A stretch of 6,279 nucleotides of DNA from a virus, in the IMG/VR virus record IMGVR_UViG_3300035703_003581, positions 1-6,279 of that record; one strand, given 5' to 3'. The position numbers and the translations under genes are program-made. Shown here piece by piece: positions 1 to 6,279 of this stretch. Each line of letters starts with the position of its first letter. The stretch's first letter is position 1. The notes under the pieces are model-generated. The model was not told the DNA's origin. It did no database searches and saw only the letters and a program-made list of their open reading frames with translations.

Positions 1-111
1 GGGGGCTGGCCCCCTGATGCTGACCTACTGGGCCAACGGCCCCCCTGTTAACCTGTGTGTATTGCTTAGCTGCGACGACGGACGCCCCGCAGGGGCGCCC
101 GCCGGCGCGGC
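1..111 (+). other. GC-rich structured element (three hairpins); candidate packaging signal and/or complementary-strand origin
   Basis: By hand count, 80 of 111 nt are G/C (72%), against roughly 30-40% in lines I counted elsewhere. Hairpin 1 pairs GGGGG (1-5) with CCCCC (10-14). Hairpin 2 is GGGCC-AAC-GGCCC (30-42). Hairpin 3 is an imperfect palindrome at 69-111 centred on loop GCA (89-91), with 16 Watson-Crick pairs, 1 G-T and 3 mismatches out of 20. It sits after the last morphogenesis gene, where Ff carries its packaging hairpin and (-) origin. Confidence 0.55.
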
Positions 112-127
112 CTTGGCAATATTACGA
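1..127. repeat. Direct terminal repeat, copy 1 (identical to 6153-6279)
   Basis: Base-by-base comparison shows nt 1-127 equal nt 6153-6279 with no mismatch. The simplest reading is the end overlap of a circular contig, and 127 is a common maximal assembler k-mer. That reading is inference. Confidence 0.95.
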
Positions 128-145
128 GATTTGCGGCTAAAATTT

Positions 146-481
146 ATGTATGCGTTTTTATCAGATGAACAGAATGCCGGTATTACCAAAGTTGTCGCCA
201 CTTACGTTGGCGATCCTACGCCGTTAACTAGTGCTTTGGGCTGTCTTGTTATGGGGCATGCTTATGGCTGGCGATATTTGTCGATGGTTCACAGTCCGCC
301 GACTGTGAAAAAATATGAGGATATTTTGGGTTTGTCTTTTTCAGAAATTTTGCCTGAATATACAGATTTGTCTAATCGCAATGTTGGCATACGGTACATG
401 CGGTTTTTTGGTACTGGTTACTGGTCTATGGTTCTAGGCCACTCTAAACTTGAAAATAGGCGTGATTTGACAGACGGTTGA
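146..481 (+). CDS. Hypothetical protein, 111 aa from ATG 146 (154 aa if ATG 17 is used); no recognisable family
   Basis: The frame is open from 17 to 481. Third codon positions are T-rich, as in the confident genes. No TM segment. There is no clear SD before ATG 146. ATG 17 has AGGGGG 11 nt upstream (across the circular junction), but that start would require translating the GC hairpin island. Spurious alternate-frame ORFs of up to 109 aa exist elsewhere in this genome, so coding status is not certain. Confidence 0.5.
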   Translation: MYAFLSDEQNAGITKVVATYVGDPTPLTSALGCLVMGHAYGWRYLSMVHSPPTVKKYEDILGLSFSEILPEYTDLSNRNVGIRYMRFFGTGYWSMVLGHSKLENRRDLTDG

Positions 482-494
482 ATTTGTGTAAAAT
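467..494 (+). promoter_or_regulatory. Candidate sigma70-type promoter for the rep transcription unit
   Basis: TTGACA (467-472), a 16-nt spacer, then TAAAAT (489-494). It overlaps the last codons and the stop (479-481) of the upstream ORF. The predicted start near 501 puts the 510-529 hairpin in the rep leader. Confidence 0.45.
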
Positions 495-509
495 CGCAGT
501 CATAAAAAA

Positions 510-529
510 AGCCGGTCTTTCGACCGGCT
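510..529. other. Perfect 8-bp GC-rich stem-loop in the rep leader
   Basis: AGCCGGTC (510-517), loop TTTC, GACCGGCT (522-529). It is preceded by A7 (504-510) and followed by TCTAACCC, so there is no T-run on the + strand. The terminator geometry exists only on the - strand. Confidence 0.6.
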
Positions 530-586
530 CTAACCCAACCCCCTTTTGATAATCTTGGCGGATTCTCGGGGGTCCAAAGGCTTCAT

Positions 587-1837
587 ATGAATAATAGCAA
601 ATCTATTTCACAAAAACAAACCCGTAAACTTGCTTTTAAATTACGTTCAACTTCTCAATCTATTTTGCGCCGTGGCCATCGTGTCCATGTTTGCCAAAAG
701 CTTGCTTCTTACAATGTATTGAATGGATCAGGCGATGTAGGTCTATCAAGGTCAAAATCATCTGGTAACGCTCATTTCCATGGTTTTGCTGTTTGTGGTG
801 ATGTTCACGCTTGTCCAGTTTGTCGTAACAAAATCGGTGAAGTACGTGTAAATGAAATTTTATCAGTTCTGGGTTGGCACCGTGTTTTTAATGATGGGAT
901 TGCTTTACTTGCAACTTTTACAGCTCGTCATGATAAAACTGACATTTTGACAGATATTGTTTCTTGCATGTCTGAGGCAAAACGTTTGTTTTCGTCTCTT
1001 GCTGCTGTAAAAAATGCTAAGCTTGTTTTAGGTTATAATAATATGATTTCAGGCCGTGATTTAACTCATGGTCATGTTAACGGCTGGCATCCCCATTATC
1101 ATGATATTTGGTTAATATCAGGTTCTGCGTTTAAGTCTTCTTACTTCAAACAATTACCCGAAAAATTGCAGCGTTTTGCTTTAAAAAATGATCTGCTTAC
1201 TCAGGGATCTGCTTTGTCTATTGTTTCTATAAAAAAGTTTTTATCTAAACAGTGGGCTAAATGTTGTGTTAAAGCAGGTTTGAAAGAGCCGTCAGAATCT
1301 CGCGGATTTGATTTGTTGTGGCGCAAGGATGGTTCTGATGCTGTTGGTGCTTATGTTTCTAAGTGGGCAAGGGAATTAGCATCTTCACATAAAAAACAAG
1401 GTAAGAATGGCAGTAGAACCCCCTTTCAGATTCTTTCTGATTTATCCAATGGTTTTAAATTGTCTGATGCTAAATTGTGGATTGAGTACACTGATGCTTA
1501 CTATGGTAAATCAATGGTTTTCTTTGGCCGGGGCTTAAAAGAAGCTGCTGGTTTAAAAGATATTACAGATGATGAAGCCGCTTTAAATGAATTGCCAGAC
1601 CATATTTGTAATTTTACCAAAGAGCAGTATCAGGCAATTATTGTATACAGTGCTTATGGTACTGTCTTAGACATAGCTGATAATTATCCTGTTCAAATGA
1701 TATATGATTTTGTCAATAGTTTAGTTGCAAAAAGAAATAATGAAAATGTGAACTATAATATTTACATGGCTAATTTGAAAAGGTCTATATTTATTAATAC
1801 TGAACAACATTTGATTGAGCTTGGTTTGGCTGCTTAA
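587..1837 (+). CDS. HUH-superfamily rolling-circle replication initiation protein, 416 aa
   Basis: Motif I-like LLATFTARH. HUH motif HPHYH (nt 1088-1102, H168-H172). Catalytic-Tyr motif GAYVSKW (Y256, nt 1352-1354). CPVC metal-binding-like pair (nt 812-823). Weak SD AAAGG at 576-580. It occupies the gII position but is not recognisably similar to M13 pII as I recall it. It resembles the Rep_1 / Phage_CRI type. Confidence 0.85.
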   Translation: MNNSKSISQKQTRKLAFKLRSTSQSILRRGHRVHVCQKLASYNVLNGSGDVGLSRSKSSGNAHFHGFAVCGDVHACPVCRNKIGEVRVNEILSVLGWHRVFNDGIALLATFTARHDKTDILTDIVSCMSEAKRLFSSLAAVKNAKLVLGYNNMISGRDLTHGHVNGWHPHYHDIWLISGSAFKSSYFKQLPEKLQRFALKNDLLTQGSALSIVSIKKFLSKQWAKCCVKAGLKEPSESRGFDLLWRKDGSDAVGAYVSKWARELASSHKKQGKNGSRTPFQILSDLSNGFKLSDAKLWIEYTDAYYGKSMVFFGRGLKEAAGLKDITDDEAALNELPDHICNFTKEQYQAIIVYSAYGTVLDIADNYPVQMIYDFVNSLVAKRNNENVNYNIYMANLKRSIFINTEQHLIELGLAA

Positions 1838-1846
1838 GGGGTTTGT

Positions 1847-2008
1847 ATGAGTGAATCTGATTATCAACTTTCTAAATGCGTTCCTGATATGCAAAATCAT
1901 GGTTTTACAATCCAGACAAATTACGGCTTGATTTTCGTTAATCCTGATGACCCTGAATGTCAAAAAATTATTGATATTGTCGTTTCGTTGCTTGATAGCC
2001 GTTCCTAG
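1847..2008 (+). CDS. Small acidic hypothetical protein, 53 aa (MSESDYQLSKCVPDMQNHGFTIQTNYGLIFVNPDDPECQKIIDIVVSLLDSRS)
   Basis: Not in the supplied ORF track. ATG 1847 lies 5 nt after the SD AAGGGG (1836-1841). The 10-mer AGGGGTTTGT (1837-1846) recurs at 2158-2167 ahead of the next gene. Stop TAG is at 2006-2008, followed by a strong terminator. Confidence 0.55.
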   Translation: MSESDYQLSKCVPDMQNHGFTIQTNYGLIFVNPDDPECQKIIDIVVSLLDSRS

Positions 2009-2039
2009 CTGTTTGTTTTTTAATCGTTAATTTTTTTTC

Positions 2040-2063
2040 ACCGGCTAAAGCCGGTTTTTTTTT
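2040..2063 (+). terminator. Rho-independent terminator ending the rep plus 53-aa ORF unit
   Basis: ACCGGC (2040-2045), loop TAAA, GCCGGT (2050-2055), running into a T9 tract (2055-2063). T8 also precedes the stem. Confidence 0.8.
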
Positions 2064-2105
2064 CTCTATTATTCATAACTTTACATTTTTATCTTAATTT
2101 TCCCC

Positions 2106-2134
2106 TTTACTGATATAAAAATACGATTTAGCAT
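2106..2134 (+). promoter_or_regulatory. Candidate promoter(s) for the structural/assembly operon
   Basis: One candidate is an extended -10-like TGATATAAA (2111-2119) with a poor -35. The other is TTTACT (2106-2111), 17 nt, TAGCAT (2129-2134). Both lie in the 160-nt AT-rich non-coding gap between the terminator and the TTG start at 2169. Neither is compelling alone. Confidence 0.3.
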
Positions 2135-2168
2135 TAGTTTAGTTAATAATCATGTTTAGGGGTTTGTT

Positions 2169-2474
2169 TTGAAAACTACTTTTGGTCTTGTCCGTGTTAA
2201 AGCTGGCACTTTTGTTAATGAGTCTCAGCAAACTGTTTTTTTTGGCGCTGCTTACACTCAGGATGTAAGGACTGTTACCCGTGATGGTTATTTTGATACT
2301 GGTATGGCCGTTCAGAAGCTTGGCATTGATAACATTGATATAGCTAACAAGCTCAATGATTTAGTTAAGGCCAACATTCATTCTTTGCCGGTTTCTGTCA
2401 CTTGCACAATTCGCCTTGATGGCAAAGAGGGTGAAAAGTCAACTCTTACCATTGTTTCTATAGATCAGAAATGA
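2169..2474 (+). CDS. Putative ssDNA-binding protein (gV position), 101 aa, TTG start
   Basis: An in-frame stop at 2157-2159 makes TTG 2169 the first possible start. SD AGGGG (2158-2162) has 6-nt spacing. It is the first gene of the structural operon and immediately precedes the pVII/pIX/pVIII-like genes. Function is assigned by synteny and size only; I see no clear similarity to M13 gVp. Confidence 0.55.
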   Translation: MKTTFGLVRVKAGTFVNESQQTVFFGAAYTQDVRTVTRDGYFDTGMAVQKLGIDNIDIANKLNDLVKANIHSLPVSVTCTIRLDGKEGEKSTLTIVSIDQK

Positions 2475-2593
2475 TGTCCGATTACACAATTATTGTTTCA
2501 GCTATTAATCAAGCTGCAAATGTTATTGTTGTTTCCCTTGCCTGTGTTTGTTTTTGGCTTGGTTTTAATTCTTGGGAGTCATCACAAAAATGA
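2471..2593 (+). CDS. pVII-like small hydrophobic virion-tip protein, 40 aa (MMSDYTIIVSAINQAANVIVVSLACVCFWLGFNSWESSQK)
   Basis: Not in the ORF track. ATG 2471 overlaps the upstream stop TGA 2472-2474. Acidic N-terminus followed by a single hydrophobic segment. Its position and size match Ff gVII (33 aa). Confidence 0.6.
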   Translation: MMSDYTIIVSAINQAANVIVVSLACVCFWLGFNSWESSQK

Positions 2594-2700
2594 TGTCTTT
2601 GCATGAAGCCGTTGCCCTTTGTTTTGGTTCCGGTATTGTTGGGTGGTGCGTTTCGCTTGGTTTTTATTTACTTAGGCGTTACGCTAATATTGTTGTTTAG
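2590..2700 (+). CDS. gIX: pIX-like small hydrophobic virion-tip protein, 36 aa (MMSLHEAVALCFGSGIVGWCVSLGFYLLRRYANIVV)
   Basis: Not in the ORF track. ATG 2590 overlaps the upstream stop TGA 2591-2593. GGGAG lies at 2574-2578. The segment IVGWCVSLGFYLLRRY resembles M13 pIX VLGWCLRSGITYFTRL, which I am recalling from memory. It lies immediately upstream of the coat gene. Confidence 0.65.
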   Translation: MMSLHEAVALCFGSGIVGWCVSLGFYLLRRYANIVV

Positions 2701-2710
2701 GGAGTTCATT

Positions 2711-2926
2711 TTGAAACAAAAATTAAATGTTGCTTTAATTACTGCTATGTCTTTATTAGCGCCTGTTGCTATGGCTGCTGATGAATCTGGTGCTGCTGCT
2801 GCTATGGCTTCAATCAAAGCTGAAGCTGCATCTTTGGCATCTGCTGCATGGCCTATTGTCACAGCTATTGTTGTTGCTGGTATTGGTATGAAATTATTTA
2901 AGAAGTTCGCTAATAAATCGACCTAA
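2711..2926 (+). CDS. gVIII: Major coat protein precursor (pVIII-like), 71 aa, TTG start
   Basis: SD AGGGAG (2699-2704) lies 6 nt before TTG 2711. Signal peptide MKQKLNVALITAMSLLAPVAMA has an AMA-A cleavage site. The mature protein is 49 aa, with an acidic N-terminus (ADES), a hydrophobic core and a basic C-terminus GMKLFKKFANKST. That tail is nearly the M13 pVIII tail GIKLFKKFTSKAS. Confidence 0.9.
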   Translation: MKQKLNVALITAMSLLAPVAMAADESGAAAAMASIKAEAASLASAAWPIVTAIVVAGIGMKLFKKFANKST

Positions 2927-2957
2927 TTTTTTTTCAATGCCTGCGGGGGCCACGCTC

Positions 2958-4562
2958 ATGATTTTTGCAAAATGGGCCGTTGGCCCCTTTCTTTTTTTGT
3001 CTTTTAATATATTTGCTGCTGATAAAACTTGTTTTGATTTTGCTGGCGAGGTTATTTATTTGCCAAAAGTTGGCACTAAGACCATATGTTGGAATAGTCG
3101 TACAGTGCTTCAAGGTGATAGCGGACCTTATGAATTGCACTGTCAGGCTGACCCTGCGATTATCTTGGAAGATGGCTCAGGTGCTTACGCAATAACATCA
3201 AGGCTTTGTAATGCTAGTCAGCCAGACCCTAACGATCCAACTGACCCAAATAATCCTGATAATCCTCCCCCAGTTGCCCCGGATAAAACAACTTTAACAA
3301 AAGCTATGGCTGGTCTTTATTATGAAATGAGATCAGTAAATCAGGCTGTCCGTTCAAATCTCATTGATTCCATTGAGCGCACAGCCATGGAAATGAATAA
3401 TTACGCTTTTTCTAACGCGATGCAGATTAAAAATAGTTTGGAGCTATCTATTAAACCGCATTTAAGCAATTTAAATACATCCTTTGATCAGTACAAAACA
3501 ACAGCAACTGAGTTTTTTGCCCAATCATTGCTTAACCAAGATGCTGAAAAATCTGAGCTTATGAAACTTGATACAAAGCTTGGTAGTATGATGATGAATA
3601 GTGATATTGCGAGTATGCAATTAACTAATATAGACAGCAAATTAGAAAGTCTTGTTGATATTGGCACTTTTATTATGAATAAACCAACTGGCGGCGGTGG
3701 TGGTGGTGGTGGTGGTGGTGGTGCTACTTCTGCTGATATTGCTGCGATTAAAGCGGATTTATCTAAAGCTGCATATTTTCAGCCGGACATTGCAACCAAT
3801 ACACAGAATTCTGCTAATTCTTTGATGAACATAGAAAATGATGTTCGTAATACTCGGCTAGGTATGGAATCTTTGCTTGGTTTGCACAGAAATACTTTAT
3901 ATGACATTCAATCTAATTTAAAAAAGATTGCTGATTCAAATTCTAATGGTGGTGGCGGTTCTGATGGTGGTAGCGGTGGTGGTAACAATCCAAATCCTGT
4001 TGACTATACAGATAAAATAAAATCAGTTGAGAATGCTGTTTCTGGTTTGTCAAATTCTGTTCAAGGAATTAAAGATCAGTTAGGCATTGATTCAAACAAA
4101 CTTGATGGTATTAAGGGGTCTCTTGATAATGGCGTTTCTAAACTTTCATCTATACAGTCTGATATAAAAACCTTATCTGATTTTGTTACTGATAAAGAAG
4201 TTCCGGACGGTAAATCTTTTGCTGAATCTGTTTCTTTGCCTGATTATGAAAAATATGCTACTGATGCCATTGAAAAGATAAGCGGCGAGGTTGAAAAACA
4301 TTCAGAACAATCAGGGTTTTCCAAGTTATCGGATAAATCAAATTTTAATAATATGTTTTCTTCAGCTACTTCAATATCGCAAATTTTTGCTATATCACAG
4401 GCTGGTTGTACTTCAATTGACTTTGGTTCTAATGCGCAATTAGATTTGTGCGAATATTCTTCAAACATTTCAAATGTTTTAGAGTTCGTCATATGGGCAT
4501 TAACTATTTTGTTTTGTTTTACTTATACAACATCATTATTGACTAGGGAGCGTTTGACATGA
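2958..4562 (+). CDS. gIII: Adsorption / minor coat protein (pIII-like), 534 aa from ATG 2958 (541 aa if ATG 2937)
   Basis: GGGGG (2945-2949) lies 8 nt before ATG 2958, while ATG 2937 has no SD. Signal peptide MIFAKWAVGPFLFLSFNIFA-ADK. The N-terminal domain has 4 Cys. Three low-complexity linkers are present: P/D/N-rich (3221-3283), Gly11 (3690-3722) and G/S-rich (about 3948-3998). The C-terminus has Cys-x15-Cys followed by the hydrophobic anchor VLEFVIWALTILFCFTYTTSLL and a basic tail, as in M13 pIII. Confidence 0.8.
   Translation: MIFAKWAVGPFLFLSFNIFAADKTCFDFAGEVIYLPKVGTKTICWNSRTVLQGDSGPYELHCQADPAIILEDGSGAYAITSRLCNASQPDPNDPTDPNNPDNPPPVAPDKTTLTKAMAGLYYEMRSVNQAVRSNLIDSIERTAMEMNNYAFSNAMQIKNSLELSIKPHLSNLNTSFDQYKTTATEFFAQSLLNQDAEKSELMKLDTKLGSMMMNSDIASMQLTNIDSKLESLVDIGTFIMNKPTGGGGGGGGGGGATSADIAAIKADLSKAAYFQPDIATNTQNSANSLMNIENDVRNTRLGMESLLGLHRNTLYDIQSNLKKIADSNSNGGGGSDGGSGGGNNPNPVDYTDKIKSVENAVSGLSNSVQGIKDQLGIDSNKLDGIKGSLDNGVSKLSSIQSDIKTLSDFVTDKEVPDGKSFAESVSLPDYEKYATDAIEKISGEVEKHSEQSGFSKLSDKSNFNNMFSSATSISQIFAISQAGCTSIDFGSNAQLDLCEYSSNISNVLEFVIWALTILFCFTYTTSLLTRERLT
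2974..2998 (+). terminator. Terminator-like hairpin plus T-tract just after the coat gene, embedded in the pIII-like signal-peptide codons
   Basis: GGGCC (2974-2978), loop GTT, GGCCC (2982-2986), then CTTTCTTTTTTT (2987-2998). The stem is only 5 bp, so it would be weak or partial. The position is analogous to the Ff terminator between gVIII and gIII. Confidence 0.4.
3690..3722 (+). repeat. Trinucleotide tract GGC GGC (GGT)9 encoding Gly11
   Basis: Read directly from the sequence. The perfect (GGT)9 spans 3696-3722, in frame within the pIII-like gene. Confidence 0.95.
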
Positions 4563-4942
4563 TCAATTTGATTATTACACCTTTGTTTGCTTTTATTGGT
4601 GCTTTCGTAACTCGTTTGGCTTCTTGGTTTATGGCTTCTTTTGTGACAGGTGCTATTAAATCATTGGTTATCAATTTGACACTGTTTACTGTTATATCTG
4701 GTTTGATAACTACCTTTGTGCTTTATGTAAACGACCTTGTTCTTGATGCTTTGAAATCTATGCCATCAACAGCACAGCTTGTTATAGCGCCTATAGCTGC
4801 TATGTTGCCCCCTAGTTTGCCTGTTTGTGTTGGTATCGTTGTTAGTGTCTATACAACAGGTACTGTTTATAATTTGGCAAAAGAAGTTGCTAAAGCTAAA
4901 GCTGCTGCTGCTGAACGTGCCGCTGGTTTTGTGAAGCTTTGA
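4559..4942 (+). CDS. pVI-like hydrophobic minor coat protein, 127 aa
   Basis: ATG 4559 overlaps the pIII-like stop (TGA 4560-4562). SD AGGGAG (4545-4550) has 8-nt spacing. Several hydrophobic segments. Position and size match Ff gVI (112 aa). No sequence-level similarity recognised. Confidence 0.7.
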   Translation: MINLIITPLFAFIGAFVTRLASWFMASFVTGAIKSLVINLTLFTVISGLITTFVLYVNDLVLDALKSMPSTAQLVIAPIAAMLPPSLPVCVGIVVSVYTTGTVYNLAKEVAKAKAAAAERAAGFVKL

Positions 4943-4943
4943 T

Positions 4944-6140
4944 ATGCCAGCTTATGTAATCACAGGTAAGCTTGGCGCTGGTAAATCTCTTGTTGCTGTA
5001 TCTCGTGTACAGCAGTATTTGTTTCAGGGTCGCAAAGTAGCAACTAACATCAACTTATATCCTGAGCATTTGACAAATAATTTATGGGCAAAAAATTGCA
5101 AAATTTTCCGTATACCGAATAAGCCCACAATTGATGATTTAGATGCTTTGCCTTTGGGCCATGATGATGATGGCCCTAATGATGACCGTAACGGCATACT
5201 TTTGCTGGATGAGTGTGGAACGTGGTTTAACTCCCGAACATGGGCTGATAAGACTCGCGCCCCTGTTATTGAGTGGTTCCGTAATGCTAGAAAAAAGCGG
5301 TGGGATATTTATTTCATAATACAAGATATATCTGTTATGGATTCTCAGGCCAGAGATTCATTTGCTGAGCATGTTGTTTATTGTAGGCGTTTCGACCGCT
5401 TTAAAGTTCCTTTGTTGCATCACTTCGGTTTCAAATTCCCAAAGCTTCATATGGGTTTGGTTAAATATGGTGATAGGGATTCTTCTCCGACTGTTGATAG
5501 ATGGATGTACAGGGGCGTTCATCTTTACAATGCTTATGACACTGAACAAAAGTTTACTGATAATGATGAAATTAAGGGGCTGGCTACCGTTCTGCCTCCC
5601 TACTATACACATGGTAGATATACAACAAAGTTGGAGCAGTTTAAGAATGCGTTTAGGTCAATCAAAGTTGGTAAGTTTTCTTTTTTTTTGATTGGGGCGT
5701 TAGTATCGTTTTTTGTTGTTAACGCCCTTTTGGTGAAAGAACCAGAGTTGCCTAAAAAGGGTCTTTGGTCTTGCAATGATGTGTATAAAAAATTGTATGG
5801 GTCTTGTGACGCTGATCCTATAGCCCCTTATGAATATTATTACCCAAAGCCAGATAAAAAAGATGACCTTTTACCAGGACAAAAGCCTGTCGAAAAGCCA
5901 AAGCCTGGCACCCCTGAAAATCCTCTTTATATTGCCGGTTATGAGATTACAACTAGAGGCGTTAATATGGCCTTTATAACTGCTGACGGTGAACCTTATT
6001 ATCCTCCGTCATATTATGTTCATTCGGTATCTGATTGCACCGCATACGTTCGCTTGGACACTACCAACTACCAATTAACCTGCATGCCTGATAACATCGC
6101 TTACCCGTCAAAGGATCAGCCAGTCGTAGCGGCTAAGTGA
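4944..6140 (+). CDS. gI: Assembly ATPase pI / Zot-family protein, 398 aa
   Basis: Walker A GKLGAGKS (4965-4988). Walker B LLLDECG (5199-5219). Blocks DECGTWFN, WDI.F..QD, AEHVVYCRR, PKLH.G.VKYGD, SPTV.RW.Y, LYNAYDT and HGRY match M13 pI as I recall it. One TM segment, FSFFLIGALVSFFVVNALLV (about 5673-5735). The start lies 1 nt after the pVI-like stop. Confidence 0.95.
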   Translation: MPAYVITGKLGAGKSLVAVSRVQQYLFQGRKVATNINLYPEHLTNNLWAKNCKIFRIPNKPTIDDLDALPLGHDDDGPNDDRNGILLLDECGTWFNSRTWADKTRAPVIEWFRNARKKRWDIYFIIQDISVMDSQARDSFAEHVVYCRRFDRFKVPLLHHFGFKFPKLHMGLVKYGDRDSSPTVDRWMYRGVHLYNAYDTEQKFTDNDEIKGLATVLPPYYTHGRYTTKLEQFKNAFRSIKVGKFSFFLIGALVSFFVVNALLVKEPELPKKGLWSCNDVYKKLYGSCDADPIAPYEYYYPKPDKKDDLLPGQKPVEKPKPGTPENPLYIAGYEITTRGVNMAFITADGEPYYPPSYYVHSVSDCTAYVRLDTTNYQLTCMPDNIAYPSKDQPVVAAK

Positions 6141-6152
6141 TTGGGGTTATTA

Positions 6153-6279
6153 GGGGGCTGGCCCCCTGATGCTGACCTACTGGGCCAACGGCCCCCCTGT
6201 TAACCTGTGTGTATTGCTTAGCTGCGACGACGGACGCCCCGCAGGGGCGCCCGCCGGCGCGGCCTTGGCAATATTACGA
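6153..6279. repeat. Direct terminal repeat, copy 2 (identical to 1-127)
   Basis: Same as copy 1. It starts 12 nt after the pI stop codon (6138-6140). Confidence 0.95.

Follow-up and report, generated by a model that had tools for sequence, protein, structure and literature searches.

A G+C-rich intergenic island in an inovirus genome as a candidate two-part replication region

The record IMGVR_UViG_3300035703_003581 of IMG/VR was analysed from position 1 to 6,279, and this whole stretch is referred to as the window. It holds exactly one copy of the 6152-nt circular genome of an inovirus plus an overlap, and every gene of this genome is located on the + strand (Table 1). The stop codon of the pI/Zot assembly ATPase gene (TGA, 6138-6140) is followed by an island rich in G+C: of the bases 1-111, 80 are G or C (72%), as stated in an earlier note on this DNA, the original prediction, compared to 38.5% in the genome. 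The same note had placed the island at a "circular junction" and let it end at position 127. Since 1-127 is identical to 6153-6279 and several unrelated circular contigs from the same collections likewise carry 127-nt terminal repeats, the junction and the end coordinate are an assembler k-mer overlap and biologically meaningless; the element is continuous from ~6141 to ~136. We consider it moderately probable that this island is a cis-acting replication region, that it is made up on the packaged (+) strand of two neighbouring modules which can be separated, Part A (6143-53, counted across the end of the circle) and Part B (61-136), and that both are replication start sites.

Table 1 Elements of the island and genes of the inovirus genome in the window
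Feature	Position	Strand	Remarks
GGGG tract of Part A, unpaired	6143-6146	+	begins 3 nt behind the stop codon of pI, immediately 5' of hairpin 1
Hairpin 1	6148-6171 (= 6148-6152 plus 1-19)	+	TATTAGGGGGC / TG / GCCCCCTGATG; 11 bp, two T.G wobbles
Hairpin 2	30-42	+	GGGCC-AAC-GGCCC
Box M3, CCCTGTTAACC	43-53	+	5'-CTG-3' at 45-47; predicted primase start site
Long hairpin	61-120	+	lower stem 61-66/115-120; upper imperfect palindrome 69-111, loop 89-91
Box M4, CCTTGGCAATATTACGAGATTTGCGG	111-136	+	predicted nick-and-bind region of the (+) origin
Gene of unknown function, 112 aa	146-481	+	true start predicted at ATG 146, not ATG 17
Rep_1-like rolling-circle initiator (Rep)	587-1837	+	PF01446, E = 9e-7
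53-aa open reading frame (ORF)	between Rep and putative ssDNA-binding gene	+	
Putative single-stranded DNA (ssDNA)-binding protein	2169-2474	+	from position and size only; no family matches
Two small hydrophobic ORFs	between putative ssDNA-binding gene and major coat gene	+	
Major coat protein	2711-2926	+	PF19199
Probable pIII-like attachment protein, 541-aa ORF	2937-4562	+	not clearly matched to any family
Probable pVI-like protein	4559-4942	+	all matches weak
pI/Zot assembly ATPase, last morphogenesis gene	4944-6140	+	PF05707; phrog_1675, E = 3e-103; 2 nt separate its end from Part A
Second copy of 1-127	6153-6279	.	assembly overlap, 100% identity, no biological repeat

All three hairpins that had been predicted for the island were found, but the first and the third are larger than stated. 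The hairpin at 1-14 (GGGGGC-TG-GCCCCC) is the inner part of hairpin 1, in which TATTAGGGGGC (6148-6152 plus 1-6) pairs with GCCCCCTGATG (9-19), TATTA/TGATG included, and the 43-nt palindrome at 69-111 is the upper part of the long hairpin. The palindrome is built of 20 + 3 + 20 nt; apart from a T71.G109 wobble it deviates from Watson-Crick pairing at A75/G105, A78/C102 and A82/C98, so the three mismatches are indeed all A residues of the left arm. Folded as ssDNA, the region 6121-6279 reached -37.2 kcal/mol compared to -29.0 ± 2.9 kcal/mol for dinucleotide shuffles (z = -2.9; 1 of 200 shuffles was as good), and the comparison with shuffled controls that had been suggested as a check thus came out in favour of structure. 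The complementary strand of the same region folded about equally well (z = -2.5), and whole modules of relatives gave z-values of -1.9 to -7.9. Folding energy was uninformative on the choice between + and - strand, the differences running in both directions. An Rfam scan of the whole window (E <= 1) revealed nothing within the island, a tRNA search found no tRNA-like sequences, and promoter and terminator scans found nothing in 1-145; the sole promoter-like + strand site within 1-620 is at 467-494.

Relatives were found via searches with Rep and pI, DNA patterns and protein look-up, and they were used to decide on a coding role. The original prediction had considered that an N-terminal extension with a lipobox-like LLSC starts at ATG 17; such an extension would be joined to the 112-aa protein. 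In this one genome, the frame stays open between 17 and 481. The closest relative, L001 (Rep 87% and pI 95% identical), differs from the window by three substitutions in the island and a 1-nt indel at ~138, and this indel uncouples the ATG-17 frame from the downstream gene and leads to a stop after 50 codons; in L085 (Rep 67% identical) the equivalent frame hits a stop codon before the gene. Furthermore, the extension has no family matches, and what is conserved among the relatives are stems and boxes rather than codons, the pattern that speaks for structure in the comparison of stem covariation with codon conservation that the prediction had proposed. On these grounds the lipoprotein-like extension is hardly credible. 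The relatives indicate that the island is non-coding and that the downstream gene starts at ATG 146, and a 154-aa "lipoprotein" ORF should not be called in annotations.

A related island was found in ~20 distinct genomes, with the same architecture and the same boxes but with replaced hairpin stems. The shared order is GGGG tract, hairpin 1, often a GCGAAGC mini-hairpin, hairpin 2, M3, long hairpin and M4. The flanks of hairpin 1 are conserved among the relatives (TTATTAGGGG...CCCCTGATG), M3 reads CC(C)CTGC(C/A)AAACC and M4 reads C-T-N-GG-N-AA...TACG-R-R-AT-Y-Y-GCGG. The division of the island into two modules follows from genomes that have Part A only and from a clade in which the parts are separated. 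L259, which has a Phage_CRI/gpII-type initiator, contains the G tract, hairpin 1, a GCGGAGC box, hairpin 2 and M3, directly followed by a terminator, and has neither the long hairpin nor M4; L133, which encodes Rep_trans plus RstB, has only hairpin 1, hairpin 2 and M3 (CCTCTGCCAAGCC). In the L004/L117 clade, Part A and Part B are ~330 nt apart and Part B abuts rep. In the L133 sequence (1-13461, an IMG genome record), a 6270-nt inovirus that has Rep_trans and an RstB homologue (CTX-like) is repeated head to tail at least twice, and the sequence may be a tandem prophage or a concatemer.

Part A of the window consists of the G tract, hairpin 1, hairpin 2 and then CCCCCCTGTTAACC. In an alignment of 13 sequences three of the four G columns of the tract are invariant and the fourth is nearly so, and the tract lies within a shared 14-mer (GGGGTTATTAGGGG). 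Across the 13 versions of hairpin 1, 92.8% of the cells were paired compared to 42-52% in slid controls; both sides had changed at 6 of the 11 pairs, and none of 500 shuffles reached the same value. The U.G pairs of this hairpin would become C.A mismatches on the other strand. A short G+C hairpin is present at the place of hairpin 2 in every relative, albeit with differing sequence, and it is followed on its 3' side by CTG in 10 of 12 relatives and by TTG in two. A second CTG (14-16) belongs to hairpin 1 itself; it is part of the 3' arm and marks the point at which the G+C core of this stem ends. A pairing between M3 and M4 (TGCCAA with TTGGCA) was considered as well and is unsupported in relatives reading TGCAAAACC. 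When viral contigs were searched for the 14-mer GGGGTTATTAGGGG and for CCCTGATGNAGCGAAGCG, many of the matches lay in coding DNA and were due to chance. A hairpin behind GGGGTTATTAGGGG was also seen in L201 (a 1.9-kb circular contig), L183 and L218, which have no protein similar to those of the window; among them are one contig with 63% and one with 24% G+C.

Part A was found together with Rep_1 (the clade of the window), with Phage_CRI/gpII (L144, L259) and with Rep_trans plus RstB (L133), and hairpin 1 with the following box was also found in plasmids of Gallibacterium anatis, whose initiator is a theta-type Rep_3. This independence of Part A from the initiator of its replicon fits a signal that host enzymes would read. 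Reviews describe lagging-strand origins of rolling-circle replication as dependent only on the host enzymatic machinery and not on Rep (PMC5714925). In the 4.4-kb Rep_3 plasmid NZ_CP126976.1 (L263/L264), the non-coding segment 3560-3740 of the record contains the hairpin-1 homologue GGGGGTTATTAGGGGGCTTTGCCCCCTGAT, then AGAAGCGAACGAAGG; the homologue is located ~90 nt after a CCTTGATAAC sequence. The same hairpin-1 match is present in the 6.8-kb G. anatis plasmid NC_015461.1.

Most likely, Part A is the complementary (-) strand origin, as far as can be judged from its sequence and distribution. The complementary-strand origins of the phages G4, alpha3, St-1 and phiK and the plasmid "G4-type" single-strand initiation (ssi) signals are read directly by DnaG primase. 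In G4, stem-loop I is followed by CTACTGCAAAGCC and the annotated primer start is at the CTG of this sequence (3996-3998); in alpha3 a stem-loop is followed by CTCCTGCTAAGCC, and in the relatives of the window hairpin 2 is followed by CCTCTGCCAAACC or CCCTGCAAAACC. Aligned on the start site, G4 reads GTCC-CTA-CTGCAAAGCC, alpha3 TTCC-CTC-CTGCTAAGCC and L144 CTTC-CCT-CTGCCAAACC; in L253 hairpin 2 is followed by CTCC-CTGCAAAACC. A descriptor made of a hairpin, 2-6 nt and [CT]TGC[ACT]AA[AG]C matches the primer start of G4 and its equivalent in alpha3, with the spacing found in the phage modules. Furthermore, the best match per genome of an M3 profile built from inoviruses only (nhmmer) was the start site of G4 and that of alpha3, on the correct strand. 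The E-values at these sites were 12 and 5, respectively; the motif is short, and only the coincidence of location is significant. The M3 consensus had been derived before the G4 origin sequence was examined. For scanning 1.7 Mb, the short M3 hidden Markov model was too weak.

Like Part A, the origins of G4 and alpha3 are non-coding and consist of G+C hairpins on the strand that a small ssDNA phage packages, with 5'-CTG-3' 3-5 nt behind a hairpin. The bases around this start, CT-CTGC-AAGCC in G4 and alpha3 and CTGC(C/A)AAACC in the relatives, may be a further likeness (C-AA-CC). GCGAAAGC in stem-loop I of G4 parallels the GCGAAGC mini-hairpin of many relatives, and G4-type signals, too, serve replicons with unrelated initiators. 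Unlike G4, the phage of the window is filamentous and not a microvirus, and the similarity is limited to the start-site box. Hairpin 1 with its GGGG tract and the TTATTA/TGATG extension has no counterpart in G4; the window has two hairpins instead of three and a degenerate box (CTGTTAACC). A G4-like, primase-dependent start appears to be the best specific model for Part A, with an Ff-type start by RNA polymerase as the main variant. By analogy, we infer the following enzymatic steps, including the priming enzyme and the exact start. After entry, the G+C-rich hairpins would stay folded on ssDNA coated by SSB (the protein that binds single-stranded DNA). At the 5'-CTG-3' on the 3' side of the hairpin, an enzyme of the host (as in G4, most likely the primase DnaG) would start a short RNA primer and copy leftwards, back through hairpin 2, and DNA polymerase III would then synthesise the replicative form.

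The broader proposal, an appreciable possibility that falls somewhat short of probable, is that a portable cassette for priming is present in Part A, composed of GGGG, a hairpin of the type TTATTAGGGGG...CCCCCTGATG, in many cases a GCGAAGC mini-hairpin, and a second hairpin with CTGCCAAACC behind it, and that this cassette is primed by DnaG as in G4. Such a cassette may, equally tentatively, have moved among filamentous phages with three unrelated initiator families, and hairpin 1 with its box occurs in theta plasmids. If this is true, one short cassette serves Rep_1-, gpII- and RstA-type phages as well as plasmids, and it offers a sequence signature for locating (-) origins in many uncultivated inoviruses. 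To our knowledge, the complementary-strand start is hardly characterised in filamentous phages other than Ff, and RNA polymerase priming, as in Ff, is the only (-) strand mechanism known to us as established for this group. The variant in which the hairpins mimic a promoter and host RNA polymerase primes, as in Ff or in ssoA/ssoU, would agree with this precedent and with a TAGCGA within GTAGCGAAGCG in L003 and L242, which resembles the CS-6 element (TAGCGA/T) of the single-strand origin (sso) regions (PMC10378824). But the TAGCGA box is missing from the window and from L001, no pair of sigma-70-like -35/-10 hexamers was found in 1-145, and the conserved unpaired boxes resemble the start site of G4 and alpha3 instead; we regard a start by RNA polymerase as unlikely. 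If the 5' half of the island is a G4-like primase site, priming by RNA polymerase is not general among filamentous phages.

Part B comprises the long hairpin and M4. The hairpin at 61-120 folded with -21.5 kcal/mol (z = -2.6). Twelve long hairpins that are mutually unalignable all fold and end just 5' of M4; the eleven others had z-values of -1.9 to -7.1, and in 10 of the 12 versions no more than 1 of 200 shuffles folded equally well. Since the versions could not be aligned, MAFFT and RNAalifold were unusable on this element and each sequence was folded separately. M4 and the preceding hairpin are present in 14 of 14 Rep_1-type inoviruses, and Part B was not found in L259, L133 and M13. Matches to a loose Part B pattern in L133 and in L254(-) lie inside genes and are due to chance.

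The box was also found far outside the inoviruses. In 107 distant loci, mostly contigs of 2-3 kb with a Rep that is ~30% identical, the 8- to 10-mers shared by the largest number of loci came from CCCTTGGTAcTAATGCGAAAT, which was near-invariant and present in 46 of the loci. It lay on the rep strand in 48 of 56 occurrences, in 43 of these 48 at 4-91 nt upstream of the residue that was extrapolated to be the first of Rep, and it was preceded by G+C-rich, often visibly palindromic sequence. An M4-type box is located 5' of rep also in plasmids of cultured Comamonas, Psychrobacter and Bacillus licheniformis (pBL63.1). Aligned by eye, CCTTGG-CA-ATATT-ACG-AGAT of the window agrees with this box at ~15 of 21 positions. 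The distant contigs L009-L084 (1.3-3.8 kb, from metagenomes, mostly G+C-rich), which encode Rep_1-like proteins of ~30% identity and have the 21-nt near-invariant box 5' of rep, in many cases contain an ATG inside TAATGCGAAAT that could be the start codon of rep, and some are longer than the unit and have two copies of the box.

Part B tracks the Rep_1 gene and is absent with other initiators (L259, L133) that keep Part A, and therefore the best reading of its sequence is that of the (+) strand or double-strand origin (dso) for a Rep_1-like HUH initiator. The nick site CTTG/ATA (the slash marks the nick) of the pC194 family is common to phiX174. As in the dso of the pC194/pUB110 family, a Rep_1-like initiator goes along with a box upstream of rep on the rep strand and with a palindrome just 5' of it, and motif and Rep_1 family co-occur from Bacillus plasmids to inoviruses. 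Upstream of rep, Rep_1 initiators reportedly nick the dso at a CTTGATA that is conserved (PMC10378824). M4 starts with CTTGG(T/C)A; its commonest form, CTTGGTA, matches CTTGATA at 6 of 7 positions and CTTGGCA of the window at 5 of 7, and CTAGG and CTCGG variants were also seen. Unlike the pC194 dso, the heptamer is non-canonical with a third base that varies within the phage clade, the conserved part extends 20 nt further (TA-T-ACG--AT--GCGG), a 112-aa gene separates box and rep in the window, and the nick is predicted. By analogy to CTTG/ATA of pC194 and phiX174, we infer a nick between G115 and G116. The palindrome would be extruded on the supercoiled replicative form, Rep would bind M4 and nick the (+) strand at CTTG/GCA (115/116) and, after one round, it would close the displaced strand at the same site. 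Other candidates for the (+) origin were dismissed: copies of CTTGATA elsewhere in the genome (e.g. at 1991) are not conserved in relatives, and an interpretation of M4 (AATATTAC) as a geminivirus-like nonanucleotide in a hairpin loop (TAATATTAC) fails since M4 is located 3' of the hairpin and the nonamer varies (AATAATAC, CAGTAC, CCTATAC).

L144 has a Phage_CRI initiator (35% identical to gpII of M13) and yet an intact Part B. The pI proteins of L144 and the Rep_1 phage L003 are 97% identical, and 3' of Part B L144 is collinear with L259. This mosaic fits a recent exchange of the replication module with an L003-like phage. The gene for the putative ssDNA-binding (G5P-like) protein of L144 differs from that of L003, and the exchange point is the island.

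Several observations weigh against the assignment of the two origins. The resemblance to G4 rests on the short M3 motif with the E-values given above, of which the window has the weakest version (CTGTTAACC, with CTG 45-47 retained) and two relatives have TTG. By folding energy the (+) strand has no advantage over the (-) strand, in the long hairpin of the window two of its three A mismatches would be G.T wobbles on the other strand, and strand discrimination comes only from the T.G pairs of hairpin 1. As to Part B, the exact CTTGATA is not conserved in the phage relatives and the third base of CTTGG varies (T/A/C); L144 could also mean that Part B is not specific for Rep_1; and in the L004/L117 clade rep has an N-terminal extension that is open and in frame and includes Part B. 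Rep of the window itself scores below the Pfam gathering threshold for PF01446 (29 versus 33.2 bits, at the E-value of 9e-7), although the precomputed annotation is PF01446 for this protein and 20 relatives and the Rep motifs are conserved (HPHYH; Y256 and K259 within YVSKW). In L004 (1655-3055) and L117 (4583-5983) the rep ORF is open for ~55 codons 5' of the conserved N-terminus, through the long hairpin and M4, and L117 differs from L004 by a 12-nt in-frame deletion in this extension; this would mean either an overlap of rep with its own origin or a wrongly called start codon.

The intergenic region of Ff phages contains the packaging hairpin A, the (-) origin hairpins B and C and the (+) origin. 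The island is in the same place as this region in M13, f1 and fd, after the last morphogenesis gene and before the replication genes, and is of the same kind, a G+C-rich island in an A+T-rich genome with cis-acting signals on the (+) strand. The earlier statement that the Ff elements are not compositional outliers was contradicted, since 100-nt segments of M13 after gene IV (5475-5624) have 64-66% G+C compared to ~41% in the genome. Ff differs from what is proposed for the island in that RNA polymerase primes its (-) origin and that gpII (Phage_CRI), not a Rep_1 protein, reads its (+) origin, and there is no sequence similarity between the two regions. The view that the block is structured non-coding DNA on the packaged strand, at the position of the Ff cis-signals, is thus upheld. 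It had also been named as the candidate for both the packaging signal and the (-) origin; the 5' half is a good candidate for the latter, but the 43-nt palindrome is a poor one for either, as it tracks the Rep_1 initiator.

Packaging nevertheless deserves a closer look, since the long hairpin (61-120) or hairpin 1 could mark the (+) strand at the pVII/pIX end of the virion like hairpin A of Ff. As in Ff, the genes for morphogenesis are directly followed by a long imperfect hairpin on the packaged strand, and the genome showed no other obvious candidate. The occurrence of hairpin 1 in a small theta plasmid could equally mean that a packaging signal was hijacked, since an inovirus packages the satellite plasmid pDolos (bioRxiv 10.1101/2023.11.28.569023). 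However, long hairpin and M4 track the Rep_1 gene and not the assembly genes: Part B is missing from L259 and L133, whose assembly genes are related or whose Part A is the same, and it is present in replicons of 2-3 kb that are too small for assembly genes. The boxes of Part A, on the other hand, are kept across pI lineages that are <30% identical, which would be unexpected if they co-evolved with pI/pVII/pIX. A packaging signal is thus rather unlikely as the explanation of the island, but it is compatible with the best explanation for the other half, and the long hairpin or hairpin 1 could double as signal. A second non-coding region at 2009-2168 (22-30% G+C), between the 53-aa ORF and the putative ssDNA-binding gene, contains a terminator-like hairpin (CACCGGCTAAAGCCGGTTTTTTTTT), and the packaging signal could also reside there.

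The distribution of both parts also bears on a function in RNA. Here, the pI message would end with a transcript of the block, which would serve as a structured 3' end or as a 5' leader that controls stability or translation of the downstream gene. In small plasmids, however, Part B is located at rep, no translated sequence adjoins Part A in the theta plasmid, the downstream gene varies among the relatives (ORF112, rep, others), the hairpins are not followed by T-runs and have no Rfam matches. An RNA element is very unlikely for these reasons, even though all genes and the supported pairings with their G.U wobbles are on the sense strand and no terminator separates pI from the block.

A foreign or host-derived origin, which the original prediction had left as a possibility, would make the block an attachment site (a XerCD dif-like site or a tRNA fragment) or a captured host repeat. 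Its composition is that of an outlier, and one relative, the tandem array L133, has an RstB gene like the CTX-like phages that integrate. Against this, the architecture and the four boxes are conserved in ~20 related phage genomes, where the block was inherited with compensatory changes within the phage lineage, and elsewhere hairpin 1 was found only in small plasmids. DNA-level searches with the whole genome and with the island against 50,697 phage records gave no matches, and apart from hairpin 1 phage and plasmid records held no similar DNA. When 185,579 species genomes were scanned with Rep, the only match was a free 7.1-kb contig, which offered no prophage junction. No tRNA-like sequence was found, and integrase and RstB are not among the annotated ORFs of the window. 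Taken together, we consider this origin highly improbable. One relative is located in a metagenome bin of Pseudoalteromonas.

In kind, the island is ordinary: it is a probable functional counterpart of the Ff intergenic region that is composed differently, with a probable G4-like cassette for priming, common to several initiator families, beside a variant of the pC194-like dso, and this version of a replication region has not been described before. Its 3' half is the probable (+) origin of a large, mostly uncultivated Rep_1-like group that comprises 2-3 kb circles and inoviruses, and the box CCTTGG-TA-TAAT-CG-AAT is almost invariant in Rep_1-like replicons. The ~200-nt island is an obvious fragment for phagemids or for vectors that produce ssDNA.

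The remaining genes are those of an inovirus. The pI protein is 46-48% identical to pI of Ff, If1 and IKe. The 112-aa protein has a homologue in L085 (54.5% identical), and searches against Pfam and PHROG gave no matches. Just 5' of rep, a promoter-like TTGACA-16-TAAAAT (467-494) is followed by an A-run, a G+C hairpin (508-531), which scores as a minus-strand terminator, and a box (CTCTAACCCAACCCCC). The order of promoter, AAAAA-hairpin and CTCAACCCAGCG also precedes rep in L085, L003, L247, L249 and L254, and the arrangement at 467-586 may be a leader or an operator of rep. A further hairpin at 2974-2986 (GGGCCGTTGGCCC) has a stem identical to that of hairpin 2 (30-42) with a complementary loop; it is located 3' of the coat gene, is followed by a T-run and, by its sequence, looks like a terminator after gene VIII. 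Because of this hairpin, the true start of the pIII-like protein is probably downstream of ATG 2937. Within the pIII-like ORF, runs of GGT codons at 3689-3725 and 3950-3983 encode Gly linkers (11 Gly, then GGGGSDGGSGGG), which are comparable to the domain linkers of pIII of Ff.

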